Shown here piece by piece: positions 10,310 to 53,942 of a stretch of DNA of 64,000 bases. The stretch comes from Bacteroidales bacterium (GTDB lineage: Bacteria; Bacteroidota; Bacteroidia; Bacteroidales; ML635J-15). The stretch's first letter is position 1. The number at the start of each line of letters is the position of its first letter. The position numbers and the translations under genes were made by a program. Location of the stretch: positions 29,627 through 93,626 of the forward strand of contig JAFZRE010000004.1 of the NCBI GenBank assembly GCA_017620015.1. Direction: 5' to 3'. A model generated the notes under the pieces. It searched no databases and was not told the DNA's origin. It saw only the letters and a list, made by a program, of their open reading frames with translations.

Positions 10310-10797
10310 ACTGGTATTTATAATGATACCAATAGTATGGCTACAATGCTGTTGAGTCATAATAGTCTCATTCATATAATAGAATAGTTAAAATAAAGTA
10401 TAAAGCAAAAAGTTAAATGGGCGCAAAAATAATGAGAAAGTAGGGTTGCTCAATGCTTCTATTCTAATTAATATAATACACAAAACAATATTTATACAAA
10501 ATATAATTTCATCATCACAAAATGAATACAATATTGCAACGGTGCAATCCGAGTTCTTGTCATGGAGCAAATGTTTCTATGTCTGTATTGTTTTCTAGTC
10601 AATGGTGTTTTTATTCTCAGTTTATTCAATAATTATATTTATCCGCCAACAATAAATATAATCTGCATAATATGCTCTAAAATTTAACACAAATCATCGT
10701 TTTGGAATGTCATTATAAGTATCTGATTTTTTGTATGTTGAACAATAGGTTGTGAGTAAAATATGTACCGAAAACAATTACGAGGGGAAAAATAAAT

Positions 10798-27434: not shown

Positions 27435-28646
27435 CTATTTTTCTGTTGTATTGTTTTCGTCTGAATTTTCCTTGCCTTTGGTGTTCTTCATAAAAAGCGA
27501 GAAGAAGGCGCCTGTCGGACAGAGGAAAGTACACCACGGACGGTTTATGAATATCGAAAGCACAAGCATCACACCTGCCAAAATCAGCACTGCCAGCGAA
27601 GCAAACTGGAACTTGAATGCCGAGAAAGGCTCAAAGTTCTCGATGCTGATGTCAAGCGAAGTACAGAGCAATGCTCCTAGTGCTACAAGCAGAACATAAC
27701 GCAGGTAGCGCAGCCATTTTGCAACTTTGGGCGAAATTTTCAGCTTGTGCTTGGGATTTACCTTGCCGACAAGTTCCTGGCAAGCCCCGAACGGACAAAC
27801 ATACATGCAATAGAATTGTTTGCCTAGGAAAAGCGGAGCAATAATTCCAGCTACAAGCACAATGAACAGGAAAATTTCCATCTGCCAGTTAACACCCGAA
27901 ACAAGCCATGCCGACAATTTTGCAATGCTGATGAACTGTCCGAGCCAGAAGCCAAGTATTCCGATTGATGCCAGTAGCAGTACGATGCGGAATTTCCTTG
28001 TGCGCTGTGGTTCCCAGAAGCAGAATCCAGCGAACAGCAGGAATACCATCGAGGCGATGAATTCCACGAGGTTGCCCATATTCTCCGTTTCGGCAGAAGT
28101 TGTGGCACTGCCGGCGTATGTTTCGAGGCGAATTCGTAACGATTTCGATATTGCCGAACTAGAATAGGTCGCACCAGTCACAGCATCAACAACTTTTGCT
28201 TTTGCCTCGTCGATCGAAAGACCATTCCAGCTTTCGAGGAAACCTTTTGCCACTACGCGGTCGAGGAAGGATGGCGTTTCGTTGTTGTCGAGCAGATGTA
28301 CTTTCTGCACTTTGTCATCGGGCGAAAGTAGCACTACAAGCGGAATATTTCCAGCATAGCCCTTTATGTCGGCACAGTATGGCATCGAGAAAAGAGCTTT
28401 GCCTACCAGTTTTTCCGACTTGTCGTAAAGCAGGTAGCAGTCGTTGTCGGCTGTATATTCGTAGTACGAGAAATTTTCAACTATTTCGGCAAAGCAGGCT
28501 GTTGAATCACCAAGTTCGGCAATGCGTTCGGGCTGCTTTGTTCCTATTTCGTAGTTGAACACCTTGCCCGATGTCAGGCAGATAGCCACGGCAAAGACGA
28601 GAAGGAGTCCTATTTTGATGAAACGGTTCATAAAATGATATTGCAA
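27435..28646 (-). CDS. Membrane FMN-binding / 4Fe-4S (polyferredoxin, NosR/NapH-like) protein
   Basis: FMN_bind flavinylation-type motif VDAVTGATYSSSAI. TM segments carry CMYVCPFGACQ and CTFLCPTGAF cysteine motifs. An alternative start, MNRFIKIG.., lies at 28631. Confidence 0.75.
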   Translation of the reverse strand: MQYHFMNRFIKIGLLLVFAVAICLTSGKVFNYEIGTKQPERIAELGDSTACFAEIVENFSYYEYTADNDCYLLYDKSEKLVGKALFSMPYCADIKGYAGNIPLVVLLSPDDKVQKVHLLDNNETPSFLDRVVAKGFLESWNGLSIDEAKAKVVDAVTGATYSSSAISKSLRIRLETYAGSATTSAETENMGNLVEFIASMVFLLFAGFCFWEPQRTRKFRIVLLLASIGILGFWLGQFISIAKLSAWLVSGVNWQMEIFLFIVLVAGIIAPLFLGKQFYCMYVCPFGACQELVGKVNPKHKLKISPKVAKWLRYLRYVLLVALGALLCTSLDISIENFEPFSAFKFQFASLAVLILAGVMLVLSIFINRPWCTFLCPTGAFFSLFMKNTKGKENSDENNTTEK

Positions 28647-28987
28647 TTATTTTTTTCAATCAAGTCTTCAATATCTTTTTTCAGAGCAGGAATATGTTTT
28701 ATTACCAAACTCCACAAAAATTCAGGTGTAACGCTATCATAACCATGAATAACCCTGTTCCTCGTCTGAATAATAGCCTTTGATTCTGGCAATAGAAATT
28801 TTTCATCTCTTTGAGCAATACACCCCATTGCTTCTCCCATAATCTCAACATTCCGTTCAACGGCGCGAATTTTCATAGTGTCATGCCTAAATTCTTCAAA
28901 TATTTTGGGCTTATCTGCGAAAAACAATTCTACTTCTTTGCAGGCATTCCAAATATCAACTAGGCATGTAAGTATATACTCATCCAT
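28628..28987 (-). CDS. hepT: HepT (DUF86) RNase toxin of a type VII MNT/HepT module
   Basis: R-x4-H-x-Y motif in ..TRNRVIHGYDSV... The start, MDEYILT.. at 28987, overlaps the MNT stop within ATGGATGA (8-nt overlap). The ORF-track start at 29053 would overlap MNT by 74 nt. Confidence 0.8.
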   Translation of the reverse strand: MDEYILTCLVDIWNACKEVELFFADKPKIFEEFRHDTMKIRAVERNVEIMGEAMGCIAQRDEKFLLPESKAIIQTRNRVIHGYDSVTPEFLWSLVIKHIPALKKDIEDLIEKNNCNIIL

Positions 28988-29279
28988 ATATCTGCTTTTT
29001 TGTGTTGTCAATATTTCTGCGCAATACTGCATTATGTATTCCAGCATCCTCAATAAGGTCGATTTCTCTGCACAACAGAAGCGACAAACTTTCTTTAAGA
29101 TTCAAATAATTGTCTGCATAATCGTATGCAGAAATGTCTTTAAAGGATACAAGCATATCAACATCGCTATCGCTATTGAACCTGTCGGTAAGAACCGAAC
29201 CAAATACAAAAAGACTACTTACATTGTGGGAACGGCACAATGCAGAAATGCTATCAATATTCGACTCAATAATGTTCAT
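28980..29279 (-). CDS. mntA: MNT (MntA-like) nucleotidyltransferase antitoxin
   Basis: FVFGSVLTDRFNSDSDVDMLV matches the GS-x10-D-x-D minimal NTase motif. It is 99 aa and lies directly upstream of HepT. Confidence 0.8.
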   Translation of the reverse strand: MNIIESNIDSISALCRSHNVSSLFVFGSVLTDRFNSDSDVDMLVSFKDISAYDYADNYLNLKESLSLLLCREIDLIEDAGIHNAVLRRNIDNTKKQIYG

Positions 29280-29289
29280 ATTGCAAAAA

Positions 29290-29550
29290 TTATTCGTAGT
29301 GCCCCTTCATGGCGAGAACCATTATATGATCGCTATGAACCTCATACACTATGCGGTTTCCTTGGTTGATATGACGAGACCATACACCAGAAAGTTCATG
29401 TTTCAGTTGTTCTGGTTTTCCAATACCAGTAGTAGGATGCTCCGCAATGTCGTCAAGAAGACTGGAGATTTTGCGCATAATGGATTTCTGCCCACTCTGT
29501 CTCCAAAAGTCACGGTGTTCCAGTGCCGTTTCGGTATACCTTATTTCCAT
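29290..29550 (-). CDS. yoeB: Txe/YoeB-family mRNA interferase toxin
   Basis: ..GIGKPEQLKHELSGVWSRHINQGNRIVYEV..KGHYE is colinear with E. coli YoeB (..[28 protein letters not shown]..RYHY). Confidence 0.85.
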   Translation of the reverse strand: MEIRYTETALEHRDFWRQSGQKSIMRKISSLLDDIAEHPTTGIGKPEQLKHELSGVWSRHINQGNRIVYEVHSDHIMVLAMKGHYE

Positions 29551-30663: not shown

Positions 30664-33600
30664 ATGGAATACAACTTTACGGAAATTGAACGCAAATGGC
30701 GCGAATACTGGAAGAAACACGACACCTACAAGGCTGTTATCGACAAATCTAAGCCCAAATACTACGTCCTCGACATGTTCCCTTATCCTTCTGGAGCAGG
30801 TTTGCACGTAGGACATCCGCTTGGATACATCGCTTCCGACATCTTTTCAAGATACAAGACTCTGAAAGGCTTCAACGTTTTGCACCCGATGGGCTATGAT
30901 GCCTTCGGTTTGCCAGCCGAACAGTACGCTATACAGACGGGCACTCACCCTGCAATAACAACAGAAAAGAACATTAACAAGTACCGCGAACAGCTCGACA
31001 ACCTCGGCTTTTCGTTCGACTGGAGCCGCGAAGTGCGCACCAGCGACCCGAAGTACTACAAGTGGACACAGTGGACTTTCATTCAGCTTTTCAACAGTTT
31101 CTACTGCAACAAATGCCAGAAAGCCCGTCCAATCGCTGAACTCGTTGCCGAATTTGCACAAAACGGCACAAAAAACATTGATGCAGCTTGCACCGAAGAC
31201 CTTTCGTTCACAGCAGATGAATGGAATTCGTGGGACGAAAAAAAGCAGCAGCAAGTTCTTATGAACTACCGCCTTGCATACCTTGCCGACATTCCTGTGA
31301 ACTGGTGTCCGAAACTCGGCACCGTGCTTGCCAACGACGAAGTTGTCGATGGTCTGTCGGTACGCGGCGGCTACCCTGTTGAGCGCAAGAAGATGCGCCA
31401 GTGGTCGTTGAGAATTACAGCCTACGCACAGAGACTACTCGACGGACTAAACACCGTTGATTTCCCAGAACCCGTAAAGGACATACAGAACAACTGGATA
31501 GGTCGTAGCGAAGGTGCTTCGGTATTCTTCGAAATCGAAGGCCGCAGCGAAAAAATGGAAATCTTCACCACCCGTCCCGATACCATTTTCGGCGTTTCGT
31601 TCATGGTAATTGCACCCGAACACGACCTTGCTCTTTCTCTCGCTACCGACGAGTATCGCGCAAAGGTTGAGGAGTATGTAACTTGGGCAAAGAACCGTTC
31701 TGATGTTGAGCGTATGGCCGAGAAGAAAGTCAGCGGACAAATGACAGGTTCCTACGCAATTAACCCATTCACAAAGGAACGTATTCCAATCTTCATCGCC
31801 GACTATGTATTAATAGGTTATGGTACTGGCGCAATTATGGCAGTTCCGGCACACGATAGCCGCGACTTTGCTTTCGCACGTCACTTCAATCTGCCTATTT
31901 CGCAGGTTGTTGCTAAGGAAGGAGCCGAAATCGTTCCAACCGACCAATGGACAGAATCGTTCGATTCGAAGGACGGCATTCTTATGAATTCCGATTTTCT
32001 CAACGGATTGCGCGTAAAGCAGGCTATCAAGGCTATGAACGACCGCATCGAGGAGATGGGCATAGGCAAGCGCAAAGTTAACTACCGTCTGCGCGATGCT
32101 ATTTTCAGCCGTCAGCGCTACTGGGGCGAACCGTTCCCAATTTACTACAAGGACGGCATCCCGTATCCGCTCGACGAGTCGAAACTTCCGCTCGAACTTC
32201 CCGAAGTTGACAAATATTTGCCAACCGAAACTGGTGAGCCACCACTGGCACGCGCAAAGAACTGGTGTACACCCGAAGGCTACAAGTACGAAACCTCGAC
32301 AATGCCAGGATTTGCTGGTTCGTCGGCATATTACCTGCGCTACACTGACCCGCACAACGACGAGATGATTTTCTCGCCAGAGGCAGTAAACTACTGGCAG
32401 AATGTTGACCTCTACATCGGTGGTCGCGAACACGCAACCGGACACCTTATATATTCGCGCTTCTGGAACAAGTTCCTCTACGACCTCGGATTGGTTCCCA
32501 ACGAAGAACCATACAAGAAGCTCATCAACCAGGGTATGATTCAGGGTCGTTCGAACTTCGTTTACCGCGTCAGCAGTTTCGAGAAGATGGCTGAATATAA
32601 GGTTTGGCAGTTGTTGAAAGACAAGAAGTTGGGCGTTGAATTCAAGCAGGACTACAAGGATGGCAAACGCCGTTTCGACTTCTACTGCGATGAAAAGAAA
32701 ATCCTTATTGAAATTAAGCGCGAACATTCGCTCGAAAAGGTTGCCGAAGCATACAGCGAATACGCAAAGGACAAGGGCTACAGGATTCTGCTTATCTCTA
32801 TCTTCGATGTTATGAACCGCATCAATGTGGTTGAGCAGAAGATTAAGGATTTGGTTGCAGGCGGTGATGTTCCAGAATTCGAGGAAGGCGAAGCATTTGT
32901 TCCGATTAACCTATTCATTTCGAAGAACATTCCAGGTCGCGAAGAATTCACCGTTCCGATTCATGTTGACATCAACATTGTAAGCAACGACATCCTCGAC
33001 ATTGACAAGTTCCGCCAGTGGAGGCCAGACTTCAACGACGCACAGTTCGTTCTTGAAGACGGAAAGTATGTTTGCGGATGGGAAATCGAGAAGATGTCGA
33101 AGTCGATGTACAACGTTCAGAACCCCGACGACCTTGTAGAACGCTACGGAGCCGACACCTTGAGGCTTTACGAAATGTTCCTAGGTCCTGTTGAGCAGGC
33201 TAAACCATGGGATACCAACGGAATAGAAGGTGTTGCAAGGTTCATAAAGAAGTTCTGGCGTATGTTCCACGACGAGGACAACAATTTCTGCATTTCGAAT
33301 GAAAAGGCTACGCCTGCAGAACTGAAGACTTTGCACAATACTATCAAGAAAGTTACCGACGACATTGAAAGGTTCTCGTTCAATACTTGTGTAAGCTGCT
33401 TCATGATTTGCTGCAACGAACTTGGCAAGTGCAACAAGCGCGAAATCCTTGAACCGCTTTGCGTTCTTATTTCGCCCTACGCTCCGCATATCGCCGAGGA
33501 ACTGTGGCACGAATTCGGACACGATACATCGGTAACCAAGGCTCAATGGCCAGAATATAACGAGGCTTACACCAAGGAAACAACATTCACTTACCCGATT

Positions 33601-33771
33601 TCGTTCAACGGAAAGATGCGTTTTAACCTCGAACTTCCGCTTGACATGAACCCGAAGCAAATCGAGGACACCGTAATGGCTAACGAATACACAAAGAAAT
33701 ACACCGACGGAAAACAGGTAGCAAAGGTTATCGTTGTTCCGAAGAAGATTGTGAACATCGTGGTTAAATAA
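30664..33771 (+). CDS. leuS: Leucine--tRNA ligase carrying an extra in-frame DUF559-like insertion of about 114 aa
   Basis: [16 protein letters not shown] (HIGH motif), the CP1 editing region and [10 protein letters not shown] (KMSKS motif). It is 1035 aa, longer than the roughly 920-950 aa I remember for Bacteroidota LeuRS. The insert spans aa 636-749. Confidence 0.95.
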
Positions 33772-43796: not shown

Positions 43797-46700
43797 TTAT
43801 TCCTTTGTAAATTTGATGTTGTGAACTTCGCTGTCGGTTGTAATCCTAAGGATATACACGCCAGATACAAGGTTGCTTACATCAACTGTGTGAACCGACT
43901 CGCCTGCTACGGCAACAGTCTCAAAGGTCATTTCCCTACCGCTCAGGTCAACAACCGTGTAAGAGATTGCGCCTTCGTAGCCTGTTACGGTGAATGTTGC
44001 CATGTCGCGTACTGGGTTCGGGTAGAGTTGAATTTCCATTGCTGCCATTTCGTCAACAGAAGTGCAAGTTCCAACCGTTACCGTTATTGTGTCGGTGGTT
44101 TCACATTCGCCGTTGCTAACCGTTACCCAAACAAGATATTCGCCTGCGTACGGATAAGTCTGAGCATAAGTGTTGCCTTCTGTTTCGCCGAACCACAATA
44201 CTTCGTCTTCAGTTTCAACGCTCAAAACGATTTCTTCGTTTACACAAACAGAAGTATCGCTGATAGCAAATGTAGGAGCAGCCAATATTGATACGGCAAT
44301 AGTGTCGGATGCTGCACAGCCATATTCGTTGAATACTGTTACCGAATATTCACCTGCTGCAGAAACCATTATCGACTGAGTCATTTCGCCAGTACTCCAG
44401 TTATACCAGTTATAACCTTCACCAGCATTTATTTCTGCTTCCGAATTTTCGCAGACATCAATGTCGGCACCAAGTGAAATTTCAGGAACTGGAGCCATTG
44501 TCATTTCAAAAGCAGCAGTTGCCGAACATCCGTGCTCGTCGGTTATGGTAAGAGTATATACACCTGCTTCAGTAACTACTGTAGTGCTTTCTGTAGAACC
44601 ATTGCTCCATTCGTATGAAATATTAGCATCATTCCATACTGTTATTTCGCTTGATGAACCTTCGCAGATTATCGATTGTTGTTGTTCTGGTACAATTACA
44701 GTCGGGGTAGCATAAACGCGTATTACAGCAGTTTCAACATCGGTTCCATCCAAGTTCGAAACAATAAGTGTTACGGTGTAGGTACCCGGTTCGTTGAAGG
44801 TATATACAGGGTTCTGCTCCGATGAAGTAGCTTCGCCGAAGTACCAAGTCCAAGTCTGCGGGAAGTTGGTGCTGTTGTCGGTGAAGTTGACAGTAAGAGG
44901 TGCGCAGCCAGATTCTACATCTGGAGTAAATGCTGCAATAGGAGGAGTATTCAGCGAGTTGACATCAACAGCGCCATTTACTGCACATCCGTGGCCATCG
45001 GTTACCACTACTGTATAGTGACCGTTGGTAAGACCAGTAATCTGTGCTGTGGTTTCGTTGTTGTTCCAGAGGATTGCGTAAGGTGAAGTACCGCCAGATA
45101 TTTCAACCGATGCAGTACCATCAGCAACACCGTGACCTGATTCTGGAGTTGACGACATTGCAAGTACTGGCAGTTCGTAATGGTTAACCGTTACGACATC
45201 GCTTGCAGTACATCCGTTGTTGTCGGCTACGACTACGGTATAGTCGCCAGCTTCAGTTGCGGCGAACGACTGCGAACCAGCCTCGCCGTTCCATGTGTAG
45301 GATACAAAACCTGCTGTTGCATTGAGTGTTGCCTCAACATTTGCACAAACCGTAACATCGTCGCCAAGGCTTACTGTAGGAGCAGCATTGACCACAAGTT
45401 CAGTGTGGAAGGTATTTCCACAGCCAGTAGCGACATTTTCTACTGCGAGGGTATATGTACCAGCATTAGCCATGATTGCACCAGAAATCACAGGAGAAGC
45501 CTCAGTAGAAGCAAATCCGTTAGGACCGCTCCACGAATAACTCAATGTTTCGGTACTTGAAACTGTGAATGTTACATCGCCACCTTCGCAAACTGGACTG
45601 TTGCTTGAAATTTCAACTGTTGGATTAGCATTTACAACTACTGTAATTGTGCTGCTTGCTTCACATCCGTTTGCTGCAACTACCGATGCCGAGTATATAC
45701 CGGCATTGTCTGCTGTTGCATTCGGAATATTAATTGTTGCTGTTGAAGCGGTGTATCCGTTAGGACCAGCCCATGTGTAGGTTACTGGAACATTCGAACT
45801 AGCAGATAGTGAAATTGATGCGCCTTCGCAGTATGTTGTATTTCCATCGATAGAAACTGTTGGAACATCACCGTCGGCTGTTATTGTTACTGATGCTTCT
45901 GCAGTACAGTTGTTTTCATTTGTAACAACTACTGTGTAGTCACCAGCAGCTGATGCGATGAATTCTGCTGTATTAGCAACGCCGTTATTCCACGAATATG
46001 AAGTTCCGCCGTTTGCAACAAGTTCTATTGAAGTCATTGAACATGTCAATGTTGTTGTTCCGCTGTTGTTTGTAATAGTAGCAACAGGATTTGCACCAAC
46101 TGTAACATTTGTGCTTGCCTCAACCGAGCAGCCTTCTGCACTTGTTGCAACTACTGTATATGTACCGCTATTTGCTGGGGTTGCGTTAGCGATTGTCGGG
46201 TTCTGCATTGCTGAAATATATCCGTTAGGACCATTCCATACAAATGAAGTTACACCCGAATTTGCTGTCAGCGAAACGGTCTCGCCTGCACAATATGTAG
46301 CAGCTTCCGAAACTGTTAATGTCGGATTTGCATTTACTACTACTGTTGTGGGTGCCTGTGCCGAACATTCGCTTTCGTTAGAAACTATAAGCGTGTATTC
46401 GCCAGCATTTGCAAGAGTTGCATTTTCAATTGTCGGGTTCTGCAAGGTTGATGTAAATCCGTTAGGACCGCTCCAAGCGTAGGTGCCAGTTGCGGTTGTC
46501 TGCAATGTTATTGTTGCGCCTTCGCAGTAAGCACCGGTGTTCGATGCATTGGCTATAGGATTAGCATTAACAACTACATCGGTTGATGCAACTGCCGAAC
46601 AACCATTTGCACTAGTTACGACAACCGAATAAGTTCCAGCATAGTTGGTTGTTGCATTTGGACGAGTAGCATTCTGCATTGCGCTGCTGAAGCCCATAGG

Positions 46701-49700
46701 ACCTGTCCACTGGTATTCGGTTGCAATGTCGCTCGAAACAGAAAGTTCTATTGTTTCGCCACCGCAATATGCACCAGAGTTCGATGCTGTTGCTGTCGGA
46801 ACAGCGTTTACAACTACGCAGTTTGTAATCTGCTTGCTGTCTGTTCCGTCCTGATTTGCAACTGTGAGCGAAACATTGTAGCTTCCAGCTTCTGCGTAAG
46901 TGTGGGTTGGGTTCTGTACATTGGATGTCTGACCATCACCGAAGTTCCAAGTCCACTGTGTAGGAGTATTTGTCGAAAGGTCAGCAAATACGACTTCTGC
47001 ACCAAGGCATATCGTTACATTTTCGGCATTGTTGACCGAGAAATCAGCAACAGGAGGAGTATTCATAGTTGCAACATTTACGATTGCTGTAGAAACACAT
47101 CCATTGCCATCTGTTACGGTAACGCTGTAGTTGCCACCTGCAAGTCCGCTGATTGTTGCGGTATTGCCATTGTTCGACCAGTTGTACTGGAATGGAGAAG
47201 CACCAGTAGGCGTTACAGTAGCTGTACCATCGTGAGAATTACTATGTGTTTCTGCTGTAGATGTTGTTACAAGTGTTGTCTGCGGATAGTTTGCAACCGA
47301 AATATTATCGGTAGCAGAACATTCGTTTGCATTGTAAACTGTTACATAGTAGTCGCCTGCTGCTACGGAAATAGTCTGGGTTGTTGCATTGGTTGACCAA
47401 TGATATGTAAGTCCTGCGCCAGCATCAAGAGTTGCGTTTTCGCCTGAACATACTGTTACATTGTTACCAAGTTCAACTGTCGGATTAGCATTTACAACAA
47501 CTGTTGTTGTTGCATCTGCTGTACAATTGTTTGCATTTGTTACAACCAATGTGTAAGTACCTGCATCAGCAAGAGTTGCATTAGCGATTGTCGGGTTCTG
47601 CATGGTTGATGTGAATCCGTTAGGACCTCTCCATGCGTATGCGCCTGTTGCGGTTGTCTGCAAGGTTATTGTTGCGCCTTCGCAGTATGCACCAGTGTTC
47701 GATGCATCAACCAGAGGGTTAGCATTTACTATGACAACAGTGCTTGCATTTGCCGTACAACCAGCTGCGCTTGTTGCAACAACTGTGTACGAAGCACCAT
47801 TTGTAGCAACTGCATTTTCAATTGTTGGGTTCTGCAATGCTGATGTGAATCCGTTAGGACCGTTCCATGCGAATGAGGTAGCATCAGAAATTGCATTCAA
47901 CGAGATTGTCTCGCCTGCGCAATATGCGCCAGTGTTCGATGCGGTTACAGTAGGTGTTGTATTTACTACTACTGTTGTTGTTGCCTGTGCTGTACAATTG
48001 TTTGCATTTGTAGCAACTACAGTGTATGTACCTTCATTCGATACTGTTGAATTTGCAATTGTCGGGTTCTGCAAGGTTGATGAGAATCCGTTAGGACCGC
48101 TCCATGCAAATGATGTTGCATTGGATGTTGCCGACAACGAAATTGTCTGACCTTCGCAGTATGCACCGGTATTTGATGCGGTGATTGTAGGAACAGCATT
48201 TACAACAACATTTGTACTTGCCTCGGCTGTACAATTGTTTGCATTTGTTACAACCACTGTGTAAGCACCGCCGTTTGTGGTGGCAGCATTTGCTATTGTC
48301 GGGTTCTGTGTTGTGGATGTGAATCCGTTAGGACCGTTCCATGCGAATGAGGTTGCATCGGATGTTGCTGACAAGGAGATTGTCTCGCCTGCACAATATG
48401 CACCAGTGTTGGATGCAGTTACTGTCGGAGTTGCATTTACTACAACTGTTGTTGTTGCATTAGCTGTACAGTTGTTTGCATTTGTTACAACCAATGTGTA
48501 AGTACCAGCATTAACTGTTGTTGCATTAGCAACTGTCGGATTCTGTGTTGTTGATGAGAATCCGTTAGGACCGCTCCAAGCATAAGTTCCAGTTGCGGTT
48601 GTCTGCAAGGTAATTGTCTGTCCTTCGCAATAAGCACCAGTGTTGGAAGCATTTGCTGTAGGATTTGCATTTACGGTTACAACAGTGCTAGCCTGTGCTG
48701 TACAATTGTTTGCATTTGTTGCAACTACGGTGTAGGAACCGCCGTTATTTGTTGCTGCATTTGCAATAGTCGGGTTCTGCTGAGCCGAAGAGTATCCGTT
48801 AGGACCGCTCCAAGCAAACGAGGTTGCATCAGCCGAAACAGCCGACAATGCTATTGTCTGTCCAGCGCAATATGCACCAGTGTTCGATGCGGTTACTGTA
48901 GGATTTGCATTTACTTCGACGATAGTGCTTGCTTCAACCGAGCAACCTGTTGTCGGGTTGGTAAGCCTTACAGTATAGGTACCTGCATTTGTCGTGGTCG
49001 AGTTCGCAATAGTCGGGTTAGCAACATTTGCAGTATATCCGTTAGGACCTGACCAAGCGTAAACTGTTCCGCCTGTACCATTTGCTGAGAGTGTGATTGT
49101 TGTGCCCTCGCAATACGGACCGTTGTTGGATGCATTTAGCGTTGGAAGTGCATTTACTGCTACAACCGTACTAGCCGAAACCGAACAACCTGTTGTAGTG
49201 TTAGTAAGTGTAGCGGTGTAAGTACCTGCATTGTCGCCATCGGCATTTGCGATGGTCGGGTTCTGGATGTTGGAAGTGAATCCATCAGGACCGCTCCACG
49301 AATAAGCAGTACCGCCGTTGCCATTTGCATTAAGTGCTATTGTTGCACCTTCGCAGTAAGGACCGCCATTCGAGACATTCAATGTAGGATTAGCGTTTAC
49401 GGTTAAGCTTGTCGAAGCGGTTGCCATACACGATGCTACGTTTTCAACTGTGATTGTGTAAGTACCAGAATTGCTTGCAGTAGCATTTGCTATCGAAACA
49501 TTCTGTGTTGATGCTGTATAGCTGTTAGGACCGCTCCATGCATAAGTTGTTGCACCCGAAACTGTAGCATTGATTTGTGCAGTTTCGCCAGCGCAGTAGG
49601 TTTCGGGAGTTGCAATCGAAACGGTCGGATTAGCATTTACAGTAATGTAATTGGTCTTGGTTTCGGTATCATTGCCAGAATTATTTGTAGCAACCAATGT

Positions 49701-52700
49701 TACAGTGTATGTACCAGCTGTTGCGTAAGTGTGAGTCGGGTTCTGCTCGGTTGAAGTATTACCATCGCCAAAGTTCCAAGCCCAAGATGTAGGAGTATTT
49801 GTACTCTGATCGGTGAAAGTTACCGTTGTACCAGCACAAACGCTAGTAGTATTTGCTGTAAATTCTGCAACTGGAGCAGCCGCTATTTGAATACCCTTCA
49901 CAACAATGTCATCAATGTAAGAATAAGAAGTTCTTCCAACTGTTCCACTAATTGCATTATTCGAAGTCATTATCCATCTCAGATATACATTAGCTTGATT
50001 GTTACAAGCATCCGGCAGTGAAATTTCATCAAGAACTCCAGAAGTCCAGTTTGCAGCACAAGTTACAGTAGCACCTGTAACATCCGTCCACGTAGAATTA
50101 TTTAGACTATACTGAACCTTGAAGTTCTTTGGAGAGTAGTTATTCGTTGAAACACCACTCTGTTTTGACCATAACTTTATGCTTTCGTAACCTGTGGTAG
50201 TAAAGTTTACCTTCCAGTATTTAGCATTATTTCCATTCCTCCAACCAGAAGCATTTGCACACAATGTTGAAGCGCCATCAGTAGTATATGTTATTGTTCC
50301 TACACCACCGCCGACAGATATTGTCTTAGTGAGGTTAGCAGAGATACCACCATCGGCAGTTGCATCGGCACTGTCTTCGGGGAAGTTCCATTCAACTAAC
50401 ACCTCAGACTGTGGAGTTACAGTAATGTAACCAGTCTTGGTTTCAGTGTCAGTTCCTTGAGCATTTGTAACGGTAAGGCTTACCGAGTATGTACCAGGAG
50501 CATTGTAAACTACTCTTGGATTCTGTACGGTGCTTGTAGCAGGAGTTCCGCCATTGAAAGTCCACGACCACGATGTTGGCATATTGGTTGAAAGATCGGT
50601 AAAGCTAACAGTAGAACCAACTTCAGCAGTAGTATTATCAGCCATAAAGTCGGCAGTTGGTGCCGAATTACAATCACCTGTTATTTCAATATCATCAATC
50701 ATGAACGCATAAGCATCATTCGAAACGCACTGTATTGCCACGTATACGGTCCGACCTGCGTATGCCGACAAACTATAGGTATATTGCGTCCAAGTAGTAG
50801 GTGCTTGAATGTATGTATTTCCACTAAGCTTTACGGTAAAACTCGATATACTATTGTCGGTTGTAGAAAGCAATACATTGAATCTTTCAAGACCGTAATT
50901 ATCGGTAATAGATTTTGCCCAGAACGAGATTGATGCATTTGAGCACAATGTAAGTGGTGCAGATATCAACCAGTCGTTATTAGGAGGCGTAGTGGATGCA
51001 AAGCATATACCGCAGCGATCGCCACCATGAGCATCCCAGCCCGTTGCTTCAGGACTTGTTGACGAAGAATTGAAAGCAATGAACGAACCTGTATAAGCCT
51101 CATTGAGAAAATCAAAACCTGAAGACTCGTATGTCGCTGCACCATCTCCATCGTAGGTAGTCCATGGATGGAAGTTATCGACCTGAAAATCTCCACAGGC
51201 CTCGAAATCGAGAGAGAAAGAACCACTGGATGCATTCGGATCAAAAACATTGATGTAAGCAGCTACTGTCCTAGTGTTACTTCCGTTAGCATTTGTAACG
51301 GTAAGAGAAACCTGATAACTACCAGGAGCAGAATATGTAACTACAGGATTTTCTTCCGTACTCGTTGATGGACTACCTCCTTCAAATGACCATGAGCGCG
51401 ATGTAACATTTCCTGCCGATATATCGTAGAAGTTTACACTTTCTCCTACATTTACCTGACGAGTATCTGAAGTAAAGTTTGCTGTTGGAGCAATAGAACC
51501 ATCATAGCATACAAATGGGAACATCGGATATTGCAAACCTGTTGAGCCTAACAAAGATGAATAGTCTGCCCATCCGCCATAGTTAACATACGCTGTACTA
51601 TATTCTCCATCCTCACTATTTGTATATGTTGCAAGCGTATCCCCTGAACTAGGATCACCAGGACGGTCGAATCCGACAGCAAAACCTTCGGCAGGAATAT
51701 CATATACTGCCCCAAAATCAATGTCTATATATCCGGTACTATTCATTGCCGAAATAACATTTGCCATAGTAATTGTCTTAGATGCAATTACCTCGCTTGG
51801 AGCATCATTAGCGACACTCCACAAATTGAATGTCACATCACAATTTGTACCGTTTGTTGCTACTACAGGGAAAAATCTGAATCCAGAAACTTTGTTATAA
51901 GGACTATAAGCCGTAAACTTTTCCGCCCATGATGTCATATCATAACCATTAGTACCAGAAAGGTAGCCGGCATAAGCATTATCAAGTGTTAATGAATATA
52001 CAGCAGGCTCTCCGCCAAACTGTGACACCGTATCGCAGAACGAACCTGTTGGCGAAATAACATTTATGTAGTCGCTCTTTGTCATTGAGTTTGTTCCGTT
52101 TGCGTTTGTTGATGAAAGAGTTACATCGTATGTGCCTGCAGTATTATAGGTAATTCCTGTAGGCTCGGTTGCTGTACTTGACGATGGCGTTCCACCCTCA
52201 AAAGTCCATGAATACGAAACAGGATTGTTTACGGTATAGTTGTAGAAGTCGATACTTCCACCTTCGAGAATAGTGGTTGTTGATGCACCGAAATTAACCT
52301 CAGGCGGCTGGTTTGCGAACGGGTCGTAACCGGGGCAATTTGTCACACCCGTATTTGTAGGGTCGAGCCACGGTTTCAACTGCTTGGCATTTGTATTGCC
52401 GTTAGACTGCCAGTGATACGAGATTTTTCCGTAGTAGTCCTGACCCGAAGTCATTGTACAATACGAAGAACCACCTGTAAGAGTACCAACGACAAAACCA
52501 TTGCTATCGAACAAAGGCGAACCAGATGAACCACCTTCGGTAACACCATATCCATTTGAATTACGAGTCCAAGTCAAACGCCAGTGAGCGCTACTTGCAG
52601 AACCTGTATAAGAACCTGTCGAAGCTGTTGAATAAGTAGAAATCTTCTTTATGTCGCCAGCAGGATGGTGAATACCAACGCCATTCGACGGAGCGGTAGT

Positions 52701-53783
52701 AGAACGGCTCCAACCATTGTAATAAGGTTCGTATGCTGCCGTAGGCGTTGAATTGAGAAGTAATAGCAAAAAGTCGGAACCACCACTTATGTCACCGCTG
52801 GCCTTCTTTGTACAGCCAGTGATTGACCTAGAACCTGTCGGTTCGCTTGTAATTGTGGTACCACTACCCGAAGCCTGAGCTGCAGGTGCTTCATACTTGA
52901 ACTTGAAAATCCACTGGTTGAATTCATTTGTAGTTGTATTGTCTTCTCCACAATGGAAAGCTGTAAGGAAATACGGAGTACCATCGTTGTTGGTATTGTT
53001 CATAAGAGAACCAGTACATACATACCAGCTTCCACCCGATTTCAGTGTAATCTGTGCAACGCCGCGCTTTTCGTCCTGCCAGTCATCACCAACAGGTGAG
53101 CAGTTGACATCAACCTCGCACGATTCCGATTCCTGTACCCTAGTCGGAGTATCCTTATAAGGTTTCAGGTCGGTGAATTCGCGGTAGAAATAGCCGACAT
53201 CGAAAATGCGGAAAGTGGTCTTGTCGGTACTGCTAGCCTTCTTGTATGCTGGTTCGTAGTACTCAATGCAAACAACTTCACCTTGCACCTGCTCGATAGC
53301 AAAAGACCCATTCTCAAGGTTGTTCTCGCTAGTGAATGCACCAAGCACTTGCTTGCGGTTCTCGTTGTAGAAGAACAGCTTGCTACCTTCGGCAAGATGG
53401 AAATCCTCGAAACCAAGGGTAAGAGCCTTTGCTCCGGGCACCCTCACCTTCAGAGTCCACAACCTTGCTCCCATAGGAAGGTCGGTCCAAGTACCTGCAT
53501 TTTGCATTGTGATGTCTGCATCGAGCGACACACCAACACGCATAGGCAAATCTTTGCTTGTGTTTGCCAAGTCCTCTGCAATTAACGGTTCAACATCGGG
53601 AGCCTTGAGACTAATCTCGTCGAACTCCACATTTATAAAGGAAGCTGGGCCTCCCTTTTCGGAACTGAAAGTCCACGGCTTCCCACCGTGAGATATCTGT
53701 GCGTTAAGACCGCTGCCAGAGCCTATCAGCAATAGCAACAAAGTCAGCACAAACATTGACTTGATGATAAAATTTCTGCTCAT
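43797..53783 (-). CDS. Giant T9SS-secreted protein (about 3328 aa): S1 (lysyl-endopeptidase-like) serine protease, PKD and cleaved-adhesin/MAM-like domains, more than 20 Ig-like repeats, T9SS CTD
   Basis: Start at MSRNFIIKSMFVLTLLLLLIGSGSGLNAQ (53783; the ORF is open to 53843). Protease motifs ..FLTAFHCGED.. and ..GGSSGSPLFDSNG... PKD units (..WTFEGGTPSSST..). Adhesin-like motifs ..PPNNDWLISAPL..FWAKS..ERFNVLLS... Repeats of about 78 aa (..AYC.G.TI.L....FAWSGPNGF.S..QNPTIANA....G.YT..). CTD IQLYPNPVRDMATF..GVYILRITTDSEVHNIKFTKE. Confidence 0.85.
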   Translation of the reverse strand: MSRNFIIKSMFVLTLLLLLIGSGSGLNAQISHGGKPWTFSSEKGGPASFINVEFDEISLKAPDVEPLIAEDLANTSKDLPMRVGVSLDADITMQNAGTWTDLPMGARLWTLKVRVPGAKALTLGFEDFHLAEGSKLFFYNENRKQVLGAFTSENNLENGSFAIEQVQGEVVCIEYYEPAYKKASSTDKTTFRIFDVGYFYREFTDLKPYKDTPTRVQESESCEVDVNCSPVGDDWQDEKRGVAQITLKSGGSWYVCTGSLMNNTNNDGTPYFLTAFHCGEDNTTTNEFNQWIFKFKYEAPAAQASGSGTTITSEPTGSRSITGCTKKASGDISGGSDFLLLLLNSTPTAAYEPYYNGWSRSTTAPSNGVGIHHPAGDIKKISTYSTASTGSYTGSASSAHWRLTWTRNSNGYGVTEGGSSGSPLFDSNGFVVGTLTGGSSYCTMTSGQDYYGKISYHWQSNGNTNAKQLKPWLDPTNTGVTNCPGYDPFANQPPEVNFGASTTTILEGGSIDFYNYTVNNPVSYSWTFEGGTPSSSTATEPTGITYNTAGTYDVTLSSTNANGTNSMTKSDYINVISPTGSFCDTVSQFGGEPAVYSLTLDNAYAGYLSGTNGYDMTSWAEKFTAYSPYNKVSGFRFFPVVATNGTNCDVTFNLWSVANDAPSEVIASKTITMANVISAMNSTGYIDIDFGAVYDIPAEGFAVGFDRPGDPSSGDTLATYTNSEDGEYSTAYVNYGGWADYSSLLGSTGLQYPMFPFVCYDGSIAPTANFTSDTRQVNVGESVNFYDISAGNVTSRSWSFEGGSPSTSTEENPVVTYSAPGSYQVSLTVTNANGSNTRTVAAYINVFDPNASSGSFSLDFEACGDFQVDNFHPWTTYDGDGAATYESSGFDFLNEAYTGSFIAFNSSSTSPEATGWDAHGGDRCGICFASTTPPNNDWLISAPLTLCSNASISFWAKSITDNYGLERFNVLLSTTDNSISSFTVKLSGNTYIQAPTTWTQYTYSLSAYAGRTVYVAIQCVSNDAYAFMIDDIEITGDCNSAPTADFMADNTTAEVGSTVSFTDLSTNMPTSWSWTFNGGTPATSTVQNPRVVYNAPGTYSVSLTVTNAQGTDTETKTGYITVTPQSEVLVEWNFPEDSADATADGGISANLTKTISVGGGVGTITYTTDGASTLCANASGWRNGNNAKYWKVNFTTTGYESIKLWSKQSGVSTNNYSPKNFKVQYSLNNSTWTDVTGATVTCAANWTSGVLDEISLPDACNNQANVYLRWIMTSNNAISGTVGRTSYSYIDDIVVKGIQIAAAPVAEFTANTTSVCAGTTVTFTDQSTNTPTSWAWNFGDGNTSTEQNPTHTYATAGTYTVTLVATNNSGNDTETKTNYITVNANPTVSIATPETYCAGETAQINATVSGATTYAWSGPNSYTASTQNVSIANATASNSGTYTITVENVASCMATASTSLTVNANPTLNVSNGGPYCEGATIALNANGNGGTAYSWSGPDGFTSNIQNPTIANADGDNAGTYTATLTNTTTGCSVSASTVVAVNALPTLNASNNGPYCEGTTITLSANGTGGTVYAWSGPNGYTANVANPTIANSTTTNAGTYTVRLTNPTTGCSVEASTIVEVNANPTVTASNTGAYCAGQTIALSAVSADATSFAWSGPNGYSSAQQNPTIANAATNNGGSYTVVATNANNCTAQASTVVTVNANPTANASNTGAYCEGQTITLQTTATGTYAWSGPNGFSSTTQNPTVANATTVNAGTYTLVVTNANNCTANATTTVVVNATPTVTASNTGAYCAGETISLSATSDATSFAWNGPNGFTSTTQNPTIANAATTNGGAYTVVVTNANNCTAEASTNVVVNAVPTITASNTGAYCEGQTISLSATSNATSFAWSGPNGFSSTLQNPTIANSTVSNEGTYTVVATNANNCTAQATTTVVVNTTPTVTASNTGAYCAGETISLNAISDATSFAWNGPNGFTSALQNPTIENAVATNGASYTVVATSAAGCTANASTVVIVNANPLVDASNTGAYCEGATITLQTTATGAYAWRGPNGFTSTMQNPTIANATLADAGTYTLVVTNANNCTADATTTVVVNANPTVELGNNVTVCSGENATLDAGAGLTYHWSTNATTQTISVAAGDYYVTVYNANECSATDNISVANYPQTTLVTTSTAETHSNSHDGTATVTPTGASPFQYNWSNNGNTATISGLAGGNYSVTVTDGNGCVSTAIVNVATMNTPPVADFSVNNAENVTICLGAEVVFADLSTNTPTQWTWNFGDGQTSNVQNPTHTYAEAGSYNVSLTVANQDGTDSKQITNCVVVNAVPTATASNSGAYCGGETIELSVSSDIATEYQWTGPMGFSSAMQNATRPNATTNYAGTYSVVVTSANGCSAVASTDVVVNANPIANASNTGAYCEGATITLQTTATGTYAWSGPNGFTSTLQNPTIENATLANAGEYTLIVSNESECSAQAPTTVVVNANPTLTVSEAATYCAGETVSLTANSGVTSFVWNGPNGYISAMQNPTIANATPANSGTYTVVATSAEGCSVEASTNVTVGANPVATITNNSGTTTLTCSMTSIELVANGGTSYSWNNGVANTAEFIASAAGDYTVVVTNENNCTAEASVTITADGDVPTVSIDGNTTYCEGASISLSASSNVPVTYTWAGPNGYTASTATINIPNATADNAGIYSASVVAANGCEASSTITVVVNANPTVEISSNSPVCEGGDVTFTVSSTETLSYSWSGPNGFASTEASPVISGAIMANAGTYTLAVENVATGCGNTFHTELVVNAAPTVSLGDDVTVCANVEATLNATAGFVSYTWNGEAGSQSFAATEAGDYTVVVADNNGCTASDVVTVNHYELPVLAMSSTPESGHGVADGTASVEISGGTSPYAILWNNNETTAQITGLTNGHYTVVVTDGHGCAVNGAVDVNSLNTPPIAAFTPDVESGCAPLTVNFTDNSTNFPQTWTWYFGEATSSEQNPVYTFNEPGTYTVTLIVSNLDGTDVETAVIRVYATPTVIVPEQQQSIICEGSSSEITVWNDANISYEWSNGSTESTTVVTEAGVYTLTITDEHGCSATAAFEMTMAPVPEISLGADIDVCENSEAEINAGEGYNWYNWSTGEMTQSIMVSAAGEYSVTVFNEYGCAASDTIAVSILAAPTFAISDTSVCVNEEIVLSVETEDEVLWFGETEGNTYAQTYPYAGEYLVWVTVSNGECETTDTITVTVGTCTSVDEMAAMEIQLYPNPVRDMATFTVTGYEGAISYTVVDLSGREMTFETVAVAGESVHTVDVSNLVSGVYILRITTDSEVHNIKFTKE
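45370..46815 (-). repeat. In-frame tandem array B of units of about 234-240 nt (Ig-like repeats, about 6 copies)
   Basis: The GGTCCTAACGG-type (GPNG) landmark recurs about every 235 nt (about 45520, 45755, 46225, 46460, 46690). Confidence 0.75.
47480..49645 (-). repeat. In-frame tandem array A of units of about 234 nt (Ig-like repeats, about 9-10 copies, several highly similar)
   Basis: It runs from VNANPTVSIATPETYCAGE.. to ..VVVNANPTVELGNN. The landmark recurs at about 47625, 47860, 48100, 48325, 48560, 48800, 49040, 49290 and 49530. Confidence 0.8.
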
Positions 53784-53942
53784 AGTATAGAAACTAAAAG
53801 TTATTAACGAATTTTTATAAAATATGGAAGGGTAAAAATACAAAATTTATATATATGTACAACACCACCAGATTATATTATACAAAAATCATATTATTAC
53901 AGATATACGACAACATCAAACATATCATTAATTAATATCAAA

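Follow-up and report, generated by a model that had tools for sequence, protein, structure and literature searches.

Why does an essential leucyl-tRNA synthetase (LeuRS) carry a nuclease-type fold just ahead of its catalytic KMSKS loop, and what has become of that fold in its new surroundings? The question is raised by the leuS gene of an uncultured Bacteroidales bacterium, which lies on a stretch of 64,000 nucleotides (contig JAFZRE010000004.1, positions 29,627 to 93,626) that was analyzed as a whole and is called the window here. In the first-pass annotation, a LeuRS of 1035 aa with an extra segment at aa 636-749 had been described; the open reading frame (ORF) was confirmed, and the segment maps exactly to nucleotides 32569-32910. 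The account that we favor, with moderate confidence, is that this insert is an anciently fixed and exapted, probably nuclease-dead DUF559 domain that extends the leucine-specific domain (LSD) of the enzyme. We are highly confident of its descriptive parts, i.e., the fold and site of the insert, its distribution and vertical inheritance, how strongly it is selected, and how its motif has eroded; for its functional part, the extension of the LSD, the chances are roughly balanced. The parts of leuS on which the argument rests are the following.

30664-33771, plus strand: leuS, leucyl-tRNA synthetase, 1035 aa, frame uninterrupted (ORF list, TIGR00396, Pfam, and LeuRS structures in the PDB).
32530-32568, plus strand: aa 623-635, host sequence on the 5′ side of the insertion, comprising the last part of the catalytic core and strand 1 of the LSD hairpin; the 1h3n and TIGR00396 alignments stop here, and the same peptide precedes a short turn in insert-free Bacteroidales LeuRS.
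32569-32580, plus strand: aa 636-639 (VSSF), short stretch that joins the insert to the host on the N-terminal side; its length and sequence differ among members of the clade (V-S-S-F or V/A-N-M/F).
32581-32868, plus strand: aa 640-735, predicted folded DUF559/Vsr-like core (PF04480, hhalign, model confidence, Foldseek matches 3hrl, 3r3p, and 1vsr, and the ratio of nonsynonymous to synonymous substitutions [dN/dS] of 0.075).
32869-32913, plus strand: aa 736-750, acidic and poorly conserved linker back to the LSD hairpin (predicted local distance difference test score [pLDDT] 48-60, net charge about -2).
32914-33090, plus strand: aa 751-809, rest of the Bacteroidales-type LSD, aligning with insert-free Bacteroidales LeuRS (dN/dS 0.089).
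33091-33105, plus strand: aa 810-814, KMSKS catalytic loop motif, read from the sequence and invariant in the alignment of LeuRS.

The product of the ORF is a class I LeuRS. It matched TIGR00396 (leuS_bact) with 955 bits (E 3e-287) and LeuRS entries of the PDB with E 3e-195, and the Pfam families tRNA-synt_1, tRNA-synt_1_2 (the editing domain), and Anticodon_1 were all matched. The alignments to TIGR00396 and to the LeuRS of Thermus thermophilus (1h3n) break at aa 632-635 and restart at aa 799. The residues in between, aa 633-798, stand for residues 584-626 of the T. thermophilus enzyme, which form the LSD, a beta-ribbon-linked module in the catalytic domain directly upstream of KMSKS. Here, a net insertion of ~110 aa replaces the 6-residue turn of the first LSD beta-hairpin, between the strands NFVYR and F(V/I)S; insert-free Bacteroidales LeuRS read ..FVYR-IKDTNT-FVS.. 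at this place. The distance from the QGM motif to KMSKS is 192 residues in the window and 191-208 residues in insert-bearing relatives, compared to a mode of 82 residues (82-102 in ordinary enzymes, full range 61-107) in insert-free Bacteroidales LeuRS (64 genes and ~80 fragments). The fragments were collected with a Bacteroides-like LeuRS segment as bait, and the conclusions rest on the real sequences that it returned. The first-pass annotation had allowed for the segment being a general and already described feature of Bacteroidota LeuRS; this is not the case, since these other Bacteroidales enzymes have only 61-107 residues in the interval. The turn itself varies from 6 to ~21 residues in other Bacteroidales. 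Counted from KMSKS in the Escherichia coli sequence, the turn presumably corresponds to loop 578-584 of the E. coli enzyme. The E. coli LeuRS residues R595, K598, and R600, as named in PMC3643597, agree with this mapping.

Profile searches and structure prediction both placed the insert in the DUF559 family. The Pfam model PF04480 (DUF559; gathering cut-off 20.6 bits) covered aa 641-729 and scored 24.6 bits when the complete LeuRS was searched, or 28.7 bits (E 1.2e-6) when the piece was excised, and the sub-threshold Pfam matches of the insert were other PD-(D/E)xK families. When 21 inserts were compared with 50 free-standing DUF559 proteins, hhalign gave a probability of 99.5% (E 4e-22) over 94 columns. 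An exhaustive phmmer search of 1.84 billion representatives with the insert yielded 123 matches at E ≤1e-3, nearly all of them proteins of 100-200 aa, and all those tested were DUF559. No full-length LeuRS was found among these matches to 50%-identity representatives, presumably since the LeuRS cluster representatives lack the insert. The match to DUF559 is not due to chance. In an AlphaFold2 model of the insert alignment, the core (aa 640-735) was predicted with a pLDDT of ~90 as helix, three strands, helix, strand, and two helices (H-E-E-E-H-E-H-H), and the next 15 residues with low confidence. A Foldseek search of the PDB with this model gave the DUF559 protein 3hrl as the top match (probability 1.00, template-modeling score 0.80 normalized to the target, root-mean-square deviation 2.1 Å, 94 columns), followed by 3r3p_B, the catalytic domain of the homing endonuclease I-Bth0305I; RAP-type mitoribosomal proteins of apicomplexans and ciliates took ranks 3, 4, 6, and 8, and Vsr (1vsr) ranked lower. 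In a full-length AlphaFold2 model (predicted template-modeling score [pTM] 0.32), the catalytic core was poor owing to a shallow alignment, and the insert was the best-predicted part (pLDDT ~90). By profile and by modeled fold, the insert is a divergent DUF559 member.

These results bear out the DUF559/Vsr-like fold that the first-pass annotation had recognized in LeuRS, with PF04480 above its cut-off, the hhalign probability, and the matches to 3hrl, 3r3p, and 1vsr; a failure to find any significant profile match, named there as the outcome that would overturn the assignment, did not occur. The description of the domain as "complete" proved correct for the fold, but not for the catalytic set, in which four of the seven DUF559 hallmark positions are replaced (see below). 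The continuous frame and the lack of intein splice motifs, both pointed out at that stage, agree with the ORF, the sequence, and the Pfam results. An intein, an intron, or a separate gene was considered as the nature of the insert and rejected: the frame is continuous, there are no junction residues, and there is no Hint match. The insert begins with V-S-S-F after R635 and ends with ..P-I-N-L before F751, without a His-Asn at the end followed by Cys, Ser, or Thr, and no Hint/intein Pfam block was found in the LeuRS at E values up to 10.

The insert is not unique to the window and is a trait of a whole uncultured family-level lineage. A homologous insert is present in every one of the 120 LeuRS that ranked highest as relatives in the protein collection (identity 66-99%, length 1035-1072 aa), and the precomputed Pfam labels of the closest ones include PF04480. 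A word-index search with the insert alone gave a single fragment of 156 aa; as the candidates of this kind of search appear to be limited by length (at most 307 aa for a 175-aa query), this does not speak for rarity. When the insert alignment was searched against 185,579 species, each represented by one genome, 192 matches were returned. In the best 80 of these, the whole query was covered at 55-99% identity, and all 80 were uncultured Bacteroidales or Bacteroidia metagenome-assembled genomes (MAGs) from rumen or gut, among them "bacterium F082" and Candidatus Limimorpha. To judge from the record names, the whole insert clade would belong to the GTDB family F082. One typical insert-bearing Bacteroidales leuS was encountered on a contig binned as Methanobrevibacter sp. 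(L063, NZ_JAFSNZ010000003.1), where it is almost certainly a binning contaminant.

In a neighbor-joining tree calculated from 915 shared columns, the 69 complete insert-bearing LeuRS formed one clade that excluded 58 insert-free Bacteroidales LeuRS. The deepest split within this clade is at 67% identity, approximately the same depth as the distance to the nearest insert-free LeuRS. The insert always occurs at the same site and in frame, and the reading frame is whole in the window and in 79 of the 80 loci. Pairwise identities of the insert and of the rest of LeuRS are correlated (r = 0.89), and the GC content at third codon positions (GC3) is 0.579 in the insert and 0.580 in the rest of leuS, in keeping with the earlier remark that the composition of the insert resembles that of the host gene. 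The single clade, the codivergence, and the equal GC3 point to a single, ancient insertion with vertical inheritance thereafter. Outside the listed clade, the nearest relative of the insert was a protein of 180 aa (P0122; 46% identity, with E-V-R in place of E-I-K), whose N- and C-terminal parts resemble out-of-frame LeuRS sequence; possibly, this is an insert-bearing LeuRS that is more distant and higher in GC and whose assembly was error prone.

Is the inserted domain still a nuclease? The endonuclease activity of DUF559 proteins is itself mostly inferred from Vsr and I-Bth0305I. Free-standing members share the constellation E..LW / (V)DF / E-x-D-G-x-x-H / D-x-x-R, the hallmarks being defined as positions each conserved to at least 90% in 50 free-standing proteins. 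Residues of the insert were counted in 136 distinct sequences, and the acidic part of the constellation was found at three places.

32593-32595, plus strand: E644, the helix-1 Glu of E..LW, present in 136 of 136; by hhalign columns equivalent to E25 of Vsr and E170 of I-Bth0305I (PMC3239194).
32677-32679, plus strand: D672, the beta-2 Asp of FDF (VDF in DUF559), present in 136 of 136; the metal-binding Asp, equivalent to D51 of Vsr and D196 of I-Bth0305I (PMC3239194).
32710-32718, plus strand: E683-I684-K685, at the position of the DUF559 "E-x-D"; residue 683 is E in 132 and D in 4 sequences, and residue 685 is K in 73 and N in 63.

With E644, D672, and E683 kept, the remaining four of the seven hallmarks are lost or variable, so that the DUF559 catalytic constellation as such is not present. 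The position of the family His is occupied by G, T, H, or S without conservation, the helix-2 Asp is replaced by Ala in 111 of the 136 sequences, and the helix-2 Arg by Trp or Tyr. The lost His and Asp correspond to H69 of Vsr and H213 of I-Bth0305I, the proposed general base, and to D97 and D222, respectively; the crystal structure of I-Bth0305I was obtained with a catalytically inactive D196A/H213A double mutant (PMC3239194). K and N at position 685 are interspersed among related genomes. The PD-(D/E)xK triad D...E-I-K that the first-pass annotation had read at this site does occur in the window sequence, but its lysine is not a conserved residue. With four of the seven hallmarks replaced and the lysine alternating with Asn, the function for which the insert is conserved is unlikely to be that of a working classical triad. 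The simplest reading of these alignments is that the domain is probably nuclease dead and has kept an acidic pocket.

The insert is nevertheless under strong purifying selection. In 693 gene pairs with unsaturated synonymous divergence (Nei-Gojobori method), the insert core gave a dN/dS of 0.075. The corresponding values were 0.050 for LeuRS outside the insert and 0.089 for the remaining, native part of the LSD. Pairwise identity amounts to 60-74% in the core and 46-55% in the linker (aa 736-750). Twenty-two positions of the insert are conserved to at least 97%, including the charged residues of surface type E640, K641, R669, K678, E691, and K692, and the clade has acquired invariant residues of its own, namely E640, K641, R669, K678, and L690-E691-K692. 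As selection on the insert is about as strong as on the synthetase, we infer a functional extension of the LSD.

The course of events that we propose would be as follows. A cassette coding for a DUF559 (Vsr-like PD-(D/E)xK) domain would have inserted once, in frame, into the first hairpin turn of the LSD in an ancestor of the lineage of uncultured Bacteroidales from gut and rumen to which "bacterium F082" and Ca. Limimorpha belong. The insert would then have become fixed, lost its mobile-element ends, and been inherited vertically since. The domain presumably still folds independently, held by a short N-terminal junction and, on the C-terminal side, by a flexible acidic linker of ~15 residues. 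As the catalytic constellation is half replaced, the ability to cut DNA by the Vsr/DUF559 mechanism has most likely gone, and the insert may now work as an enlarged LSD, possibly by providing an additional contact to tRNA-Leu or by modulating the movement of the LSD and the KMSKS loop. Nucleic acid could be contacted via the retained acidic pocket together with the conserved basic residues K641, R669, K678, and K692. Variable length, positioning of the KMSKS loop, and a part in the binding of tRNA-Leu are known features of the LSD (PMC3643597). The mobile-cassette origin, the loss of nuclease activity, and the role in tRNA or LSD function are the parts of this sequence of events that we infer.

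Several observations weigh against this account. The three invariant acidic residues could form a metal site, with some catalytic activity surviving. The insert core has a mean net charge of +0.7, compared to about +4 for free-standing DUF559 proteins, so that electrostatics lend no support to general nucleic acid binding. The full-length model (pTM 0.32) is too poor to place the insert relative to the tRNA. A tRNA-Leu(CAA) gene found near an insert-bearing leuS (L024, 85 nt, a single case) is of ordinary length and gives no sign of a coevolved tRNA; the window itself contains no tRNA genes. In one of the 80 loci (L028, RUG358, 4560-4600), leuS has a frameshift and a short deletion just after KMSK; this only broken copy, coming from a MAG, probably reflects an assembly error rather than a pseudogene. 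Finally, the strong purifying selection could stem solely from the need for clean folding of a domain nested in an essential enzyme.

This last point leads to the main rival of the LSD extension, a tolerated passenger without a function of its own, which would be kept since exact deletion from an essential gene is rare and whose selection would reflect fast folding and solubility only. The LSD does tolerate large variation and can be replaced even by a tetrapeptide (PMC3643597), and the 6 to ~21 residues at the same turn in other Bacteroidales are in line with such tolerance. Many of the conserved positions belong to the hydrophobic core or are glycines, the net charge is about zero, and the insert evolves at a somewhat higher rate than the remainder of LeuRS, with 60% versus 70% identity in distant pairs. 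However, the dN/dS of the insert is below that of the native LSD remainder, and not a single loss or truncation was seen in the 69 complete genes down to 67% identity. Eight charged residues outside the hydrophobic core are invariant (E640, K641, E644, R669, D672, K678, E691, and K692), and in a functionless domain one would normally expect three clustered acidic residues to vary freely or even to be destabilizing. Because of the low dN/dS and the invariant charged residues outside the core, we rate the passenger below the LSD extension and consider it rather unlikely.

A domain that is still an active nuclease, acting through D672...E683-x-K685 or through an E/D/E metal triad, would confer on LeuRS a second activity, either as a homing-type endonuclease or by cleavage of DNA or RNA. 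The conservation of E644, D672, and E683 (at least 97%) would fit, as would the D...ExK read in the window and its close relatives, the score of 68 bits that the subclade of the window reaches against canonical DUF559 (38-48 bits for other members of the clade), and a fold nearest to DUF559 and to the domain of a real homing endonuclease. Against it stand the Asn at position 685 in 63 of the 136 sequences and its interspersion with Lys among related genomes, the absence of the family His and of the second Asp, and the lack of a DNA-binding accessory region such as the NUMOD/helix-turn-helix (HTH) part of I-Bth0305I. There is also no sign of mobility, with one site, one clade, and no repeat ends, and a constitutive nuclease on an abundant essential enzyme would presumably be hazardous. 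Taken together, we regard this possibility as improbable. An assembly or annotation artefact, i.e., a chimeric contig or read-through of a separate gene, might be suggested by the fact that the window and its relatives are metagenome assemblies, but it is refuted by the recurrence of the insert, in frame and at an identical codon position, in 80 genomes that were assembled independently and in 120 protein clusters, by the variety of sources of the insert-bearing genomes (cattle, buffalo, yak, goat, sheep, deer, and others), and by codon-level substitutions with the pattern of coding sequence.

Where did the inserted domain come from? Among the relatives of the insert were canonical DUF559 domains that lie in frame within other proteins, namely, UvrC, QueA, HsdS, an HsdM-like and a RecO-like protein, a MetH fragment, and one further LeuRS. 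The host proteins other than this LeuRS are P0219, P0202, P0205, P0211, P0139, P0228, and P0127; the HsdS copy lies between the two target-recognition domains, and in QueA and UvrC the peptides flanking the nested domain are direct repeats of each other (23 and ~39 residues). In LeuRS genes of other genomes, the following in-frame elements were identified.

L081, 1208-1675: DUF559 cassette in LeuRS (P0150; sloth gut), in frame.
L082, 3377-3815: DUF559 cassette in LeuRS, in frame.
L083, 3365-3787: DUF559 cassette in LeuRS (Tara Oceans), in frame.
L084, 284-722: DUF559 cassette in LeuRS, in frame.
L095, 3331-3468, and also L100, L107, L119, L126, L133, L134, L151, and L157: solo GC-rich hairpin elements of ~48 nt, in frame, coding for Pro/Ser/Gly-rich peptides such as SPDPSPKREGS.

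The four cassettes share another hairpin turn of LeuRS, the CP1 site, where the editing domain begins; the turn is bordered by GRSEGxE(M)xF and (F)TIFTTR(A/P)DT, with EMEF(T)V and (H)FTIFTT as the flanking strands. They keep the full E/D/ExDG..H/D..R motif and are bounded by terminal inverted repeats that are rich in GC, with arms of 28-43 nt that show 76-93% complementarity and lie 367-383 nt from each other, as in L083 (CTAGCCCCC...GGGGGCTAG) and L081 (CACCTCCCC...GGGGAGGTG). Each cassette end can also fold into a hairpin of its own, and the repeats are translated into Pro/Gly-rich peptides, e.g., PLAPSKRGG and VPSFGGDLGEV. The distribution of the cassettes is patchy: the LeuRS of L081 shares 88% identity with empty-site enzymes (L086), but no more than 69% and 59% with the other filled ones. 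In nine enzymes that are 79-82% identical to those of L082 and L084, a 16-residue "solo" hairpin element (..CLSPDPSPKREGS..) stands alone at the cassette site. A similar solo element is present in a different LeuRS loop (L116, near 3831), and in a protein fragment (P0323) a comparable peptide occupies the LSD turn itself. In L143, near 2516, a solo element coincides with a frameshift. Overall, the cassettes look like a small mobile element with nonautonomous (solo) derivatives that sits in frame in loop-coding DNA.

Like the cassettes, the insert of the window is placed in frame in a hairpin turn, but it has no inverted-repeat ends: no terminal inverted repeats comparable to the cassette ends were found at the insert, and the cassette hairpin motif does not occur anywhere in the window. 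A likeness of the linker to the cassette end peptide VPSFGGDLGEV, considered as a relic repeat, was too weak to count. Descent of the insert from such a cassette is plausible, and the loss of the ends would fit an old, eroded copy. Going further, the insert might be a domesticated fossil of an undescribed class of mobile elements of ~450 bp. Such elements would consist of a DUF559 frame between GC-rich terminal inverted repeats that translate into Pro/Gly-rich linkers, would insert or home in frame into beta-hairpin turns (LeuRS, UvrC, QueA, HsdS, RecO), and would be kept in the mature protein without an intron or intein; the solo forms would resemble Rickettsia palindromic elements (RPEs), and the F082 copy would have been fixed and exapted in the LSD. 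We put this forward tentatively, as a possibility that at present has somewhat less than the balance of probability on its side. The more general suggestion of the first-pass annotation, a domesticated domain or once-mobile DNA that has become fixed, has gained support from the single clade, the codivergence, the purifying selection, the fully ameliorated codon usage, and the recent, mobile-looking DUF559 cassettes in other LeuRS.

Comparison with known systems helps to delimit what the insert is. With free-standing DUF559 proteins such as NGO0050 of Neisseria gonorrhoeae (3HRL) it shares the profile, the predicted fold, and the helix-1 Glu, beta-2 Asp, and beta-3 Glu. It differs from them in being nested in a loop of an essential enzyme, in having K or N for the Asp of ExD, in the loss of the His and of the helix-2 Asp and Arg, in its lower net charge, and in its new invariant residues. 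The EDxHD/Vsr-like homing endonucleases (I-Bth0305I, 3R3P; Vsr, 1VSR and 1CW0) have the same catalytic-domain fold, and, like homing endonuclease genes, the DUF559 cassettes sit at conserved sites of conserved genes. Unlike EDxHD enzymes, the insert does not hold all five active-site positions, lacking the conserved His and the second Asp, and it has no zinc site, no NUMOD/HTH DNA-binding region, and no residence in an intron or intein; its spread is fixed and not sporadic. Inteins with homing endonucleases likewise place an endonuclease domain in frame in an essential protein, but here Hint and the nucleophiles are missing, so that the domain would stay in the mature protein.

The best functional analogy is the RAP domain of FASTKD4, a module of organellar proteins that has the same Vsr-like fold. 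FASTKD4 binds RNA, and its Vsr-like pocket has no catalytic activity (PMC11879112). The likeness holds at the superfamily level only, and RAP/FASTKD4 is eukaryotic and has FAST motifs and a positively charged cavity, whereas the LeuRS insert is bacterial, nested, and nearly neutral. Among LSD variants, an extended hairpin in E. coli, a very large split LSD in Aquifex aeolicus, and a GKDG tetrapeptide in Mycoplasma mobile have been described (PMC3643597). These variants occur at the same location before KMSKS, but elaborate their own beta structure, whereas in the present case a complete foreign domain of an unrelated superfamily has been added. RPEs are selfish palindromic DNA that is found in frame in housekeeping genes and is translated (PMC10969869). 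The GC-rich hairpins in the LeuRS loops of Bacteroidales behave like RPEs, with the difference that RPEs carry no enzyme, while the cassettes carry a DUF559 frame; the insert of the window is without such ends.

Bacterial aminoacyl-tRNA synthetases are thought to gain few foreign domains, and in the literature searched nothing was found that connects DUF559 or a Vsr-like domain to LeuRS or to any tRNA synthetase. What is new here is a known fold family in a new and conserved architectural context inside an essential enzyme. That an abundant uncultured rumen family keeps a strongly selected nuclease-fold domain in the module that steers KMSKS and touches tRNA-Leu amounts to a natural experiment in domain insertion, and it offers a testable case of a nuclease fold reused as a likely noncatalytic module, for which RAP/FASTKD sets a precedent. 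The insert is also a clean molecular marker for the lineage. If the cassettes are autonomous elements, they would give a function to the large uncharacterized DUF559 family and represent an intein-free and intron-free way for endonuclease genes to live in coding sequences; this mobile-cassette reading, if confirmed, would be further from the known than the insert itself.

Apart from the LSD, one other region of the LeuRS differs from its counterpart in T. thermophilus. Approximately 59 residues (aa 144-202, window 31093-31269) between the first and second matched blocks did not align to that enzyme; they contain C148-N-K-C151, were poorly predicted in the full-length AlphaFold2 model, and are probably a lineage-specific form of the zinc-binding insertion. 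The surroundings of leuS are ordinary chromosome, with genes for an RsmI-like methylase, a HAD hydrolase, pgi, and a NUDIX gene. Genes of toxin-antitoxin type lie upstream of this neighborhood on the minus strand (window 28628-29550) and code for a HepT-like RNase, an MntA-like nucleotidyltransferase, and a YoeB-like toxin. The window also contains three giant ORFs on the minus strand, at 1361-10375 (3004 aa), 43797-53843 (3348 aa), and 54182-64000 (>3272 aa), with C-terminal type IX secretion sorting domains. The first of them has three repeats of the ALK/LTK glycine-rich domain together with immunoglobulin (Ig)-like and laminin-G domains, the second has PKD and Ig repeats, and in the third the sorting domain is the sole Pfam match.

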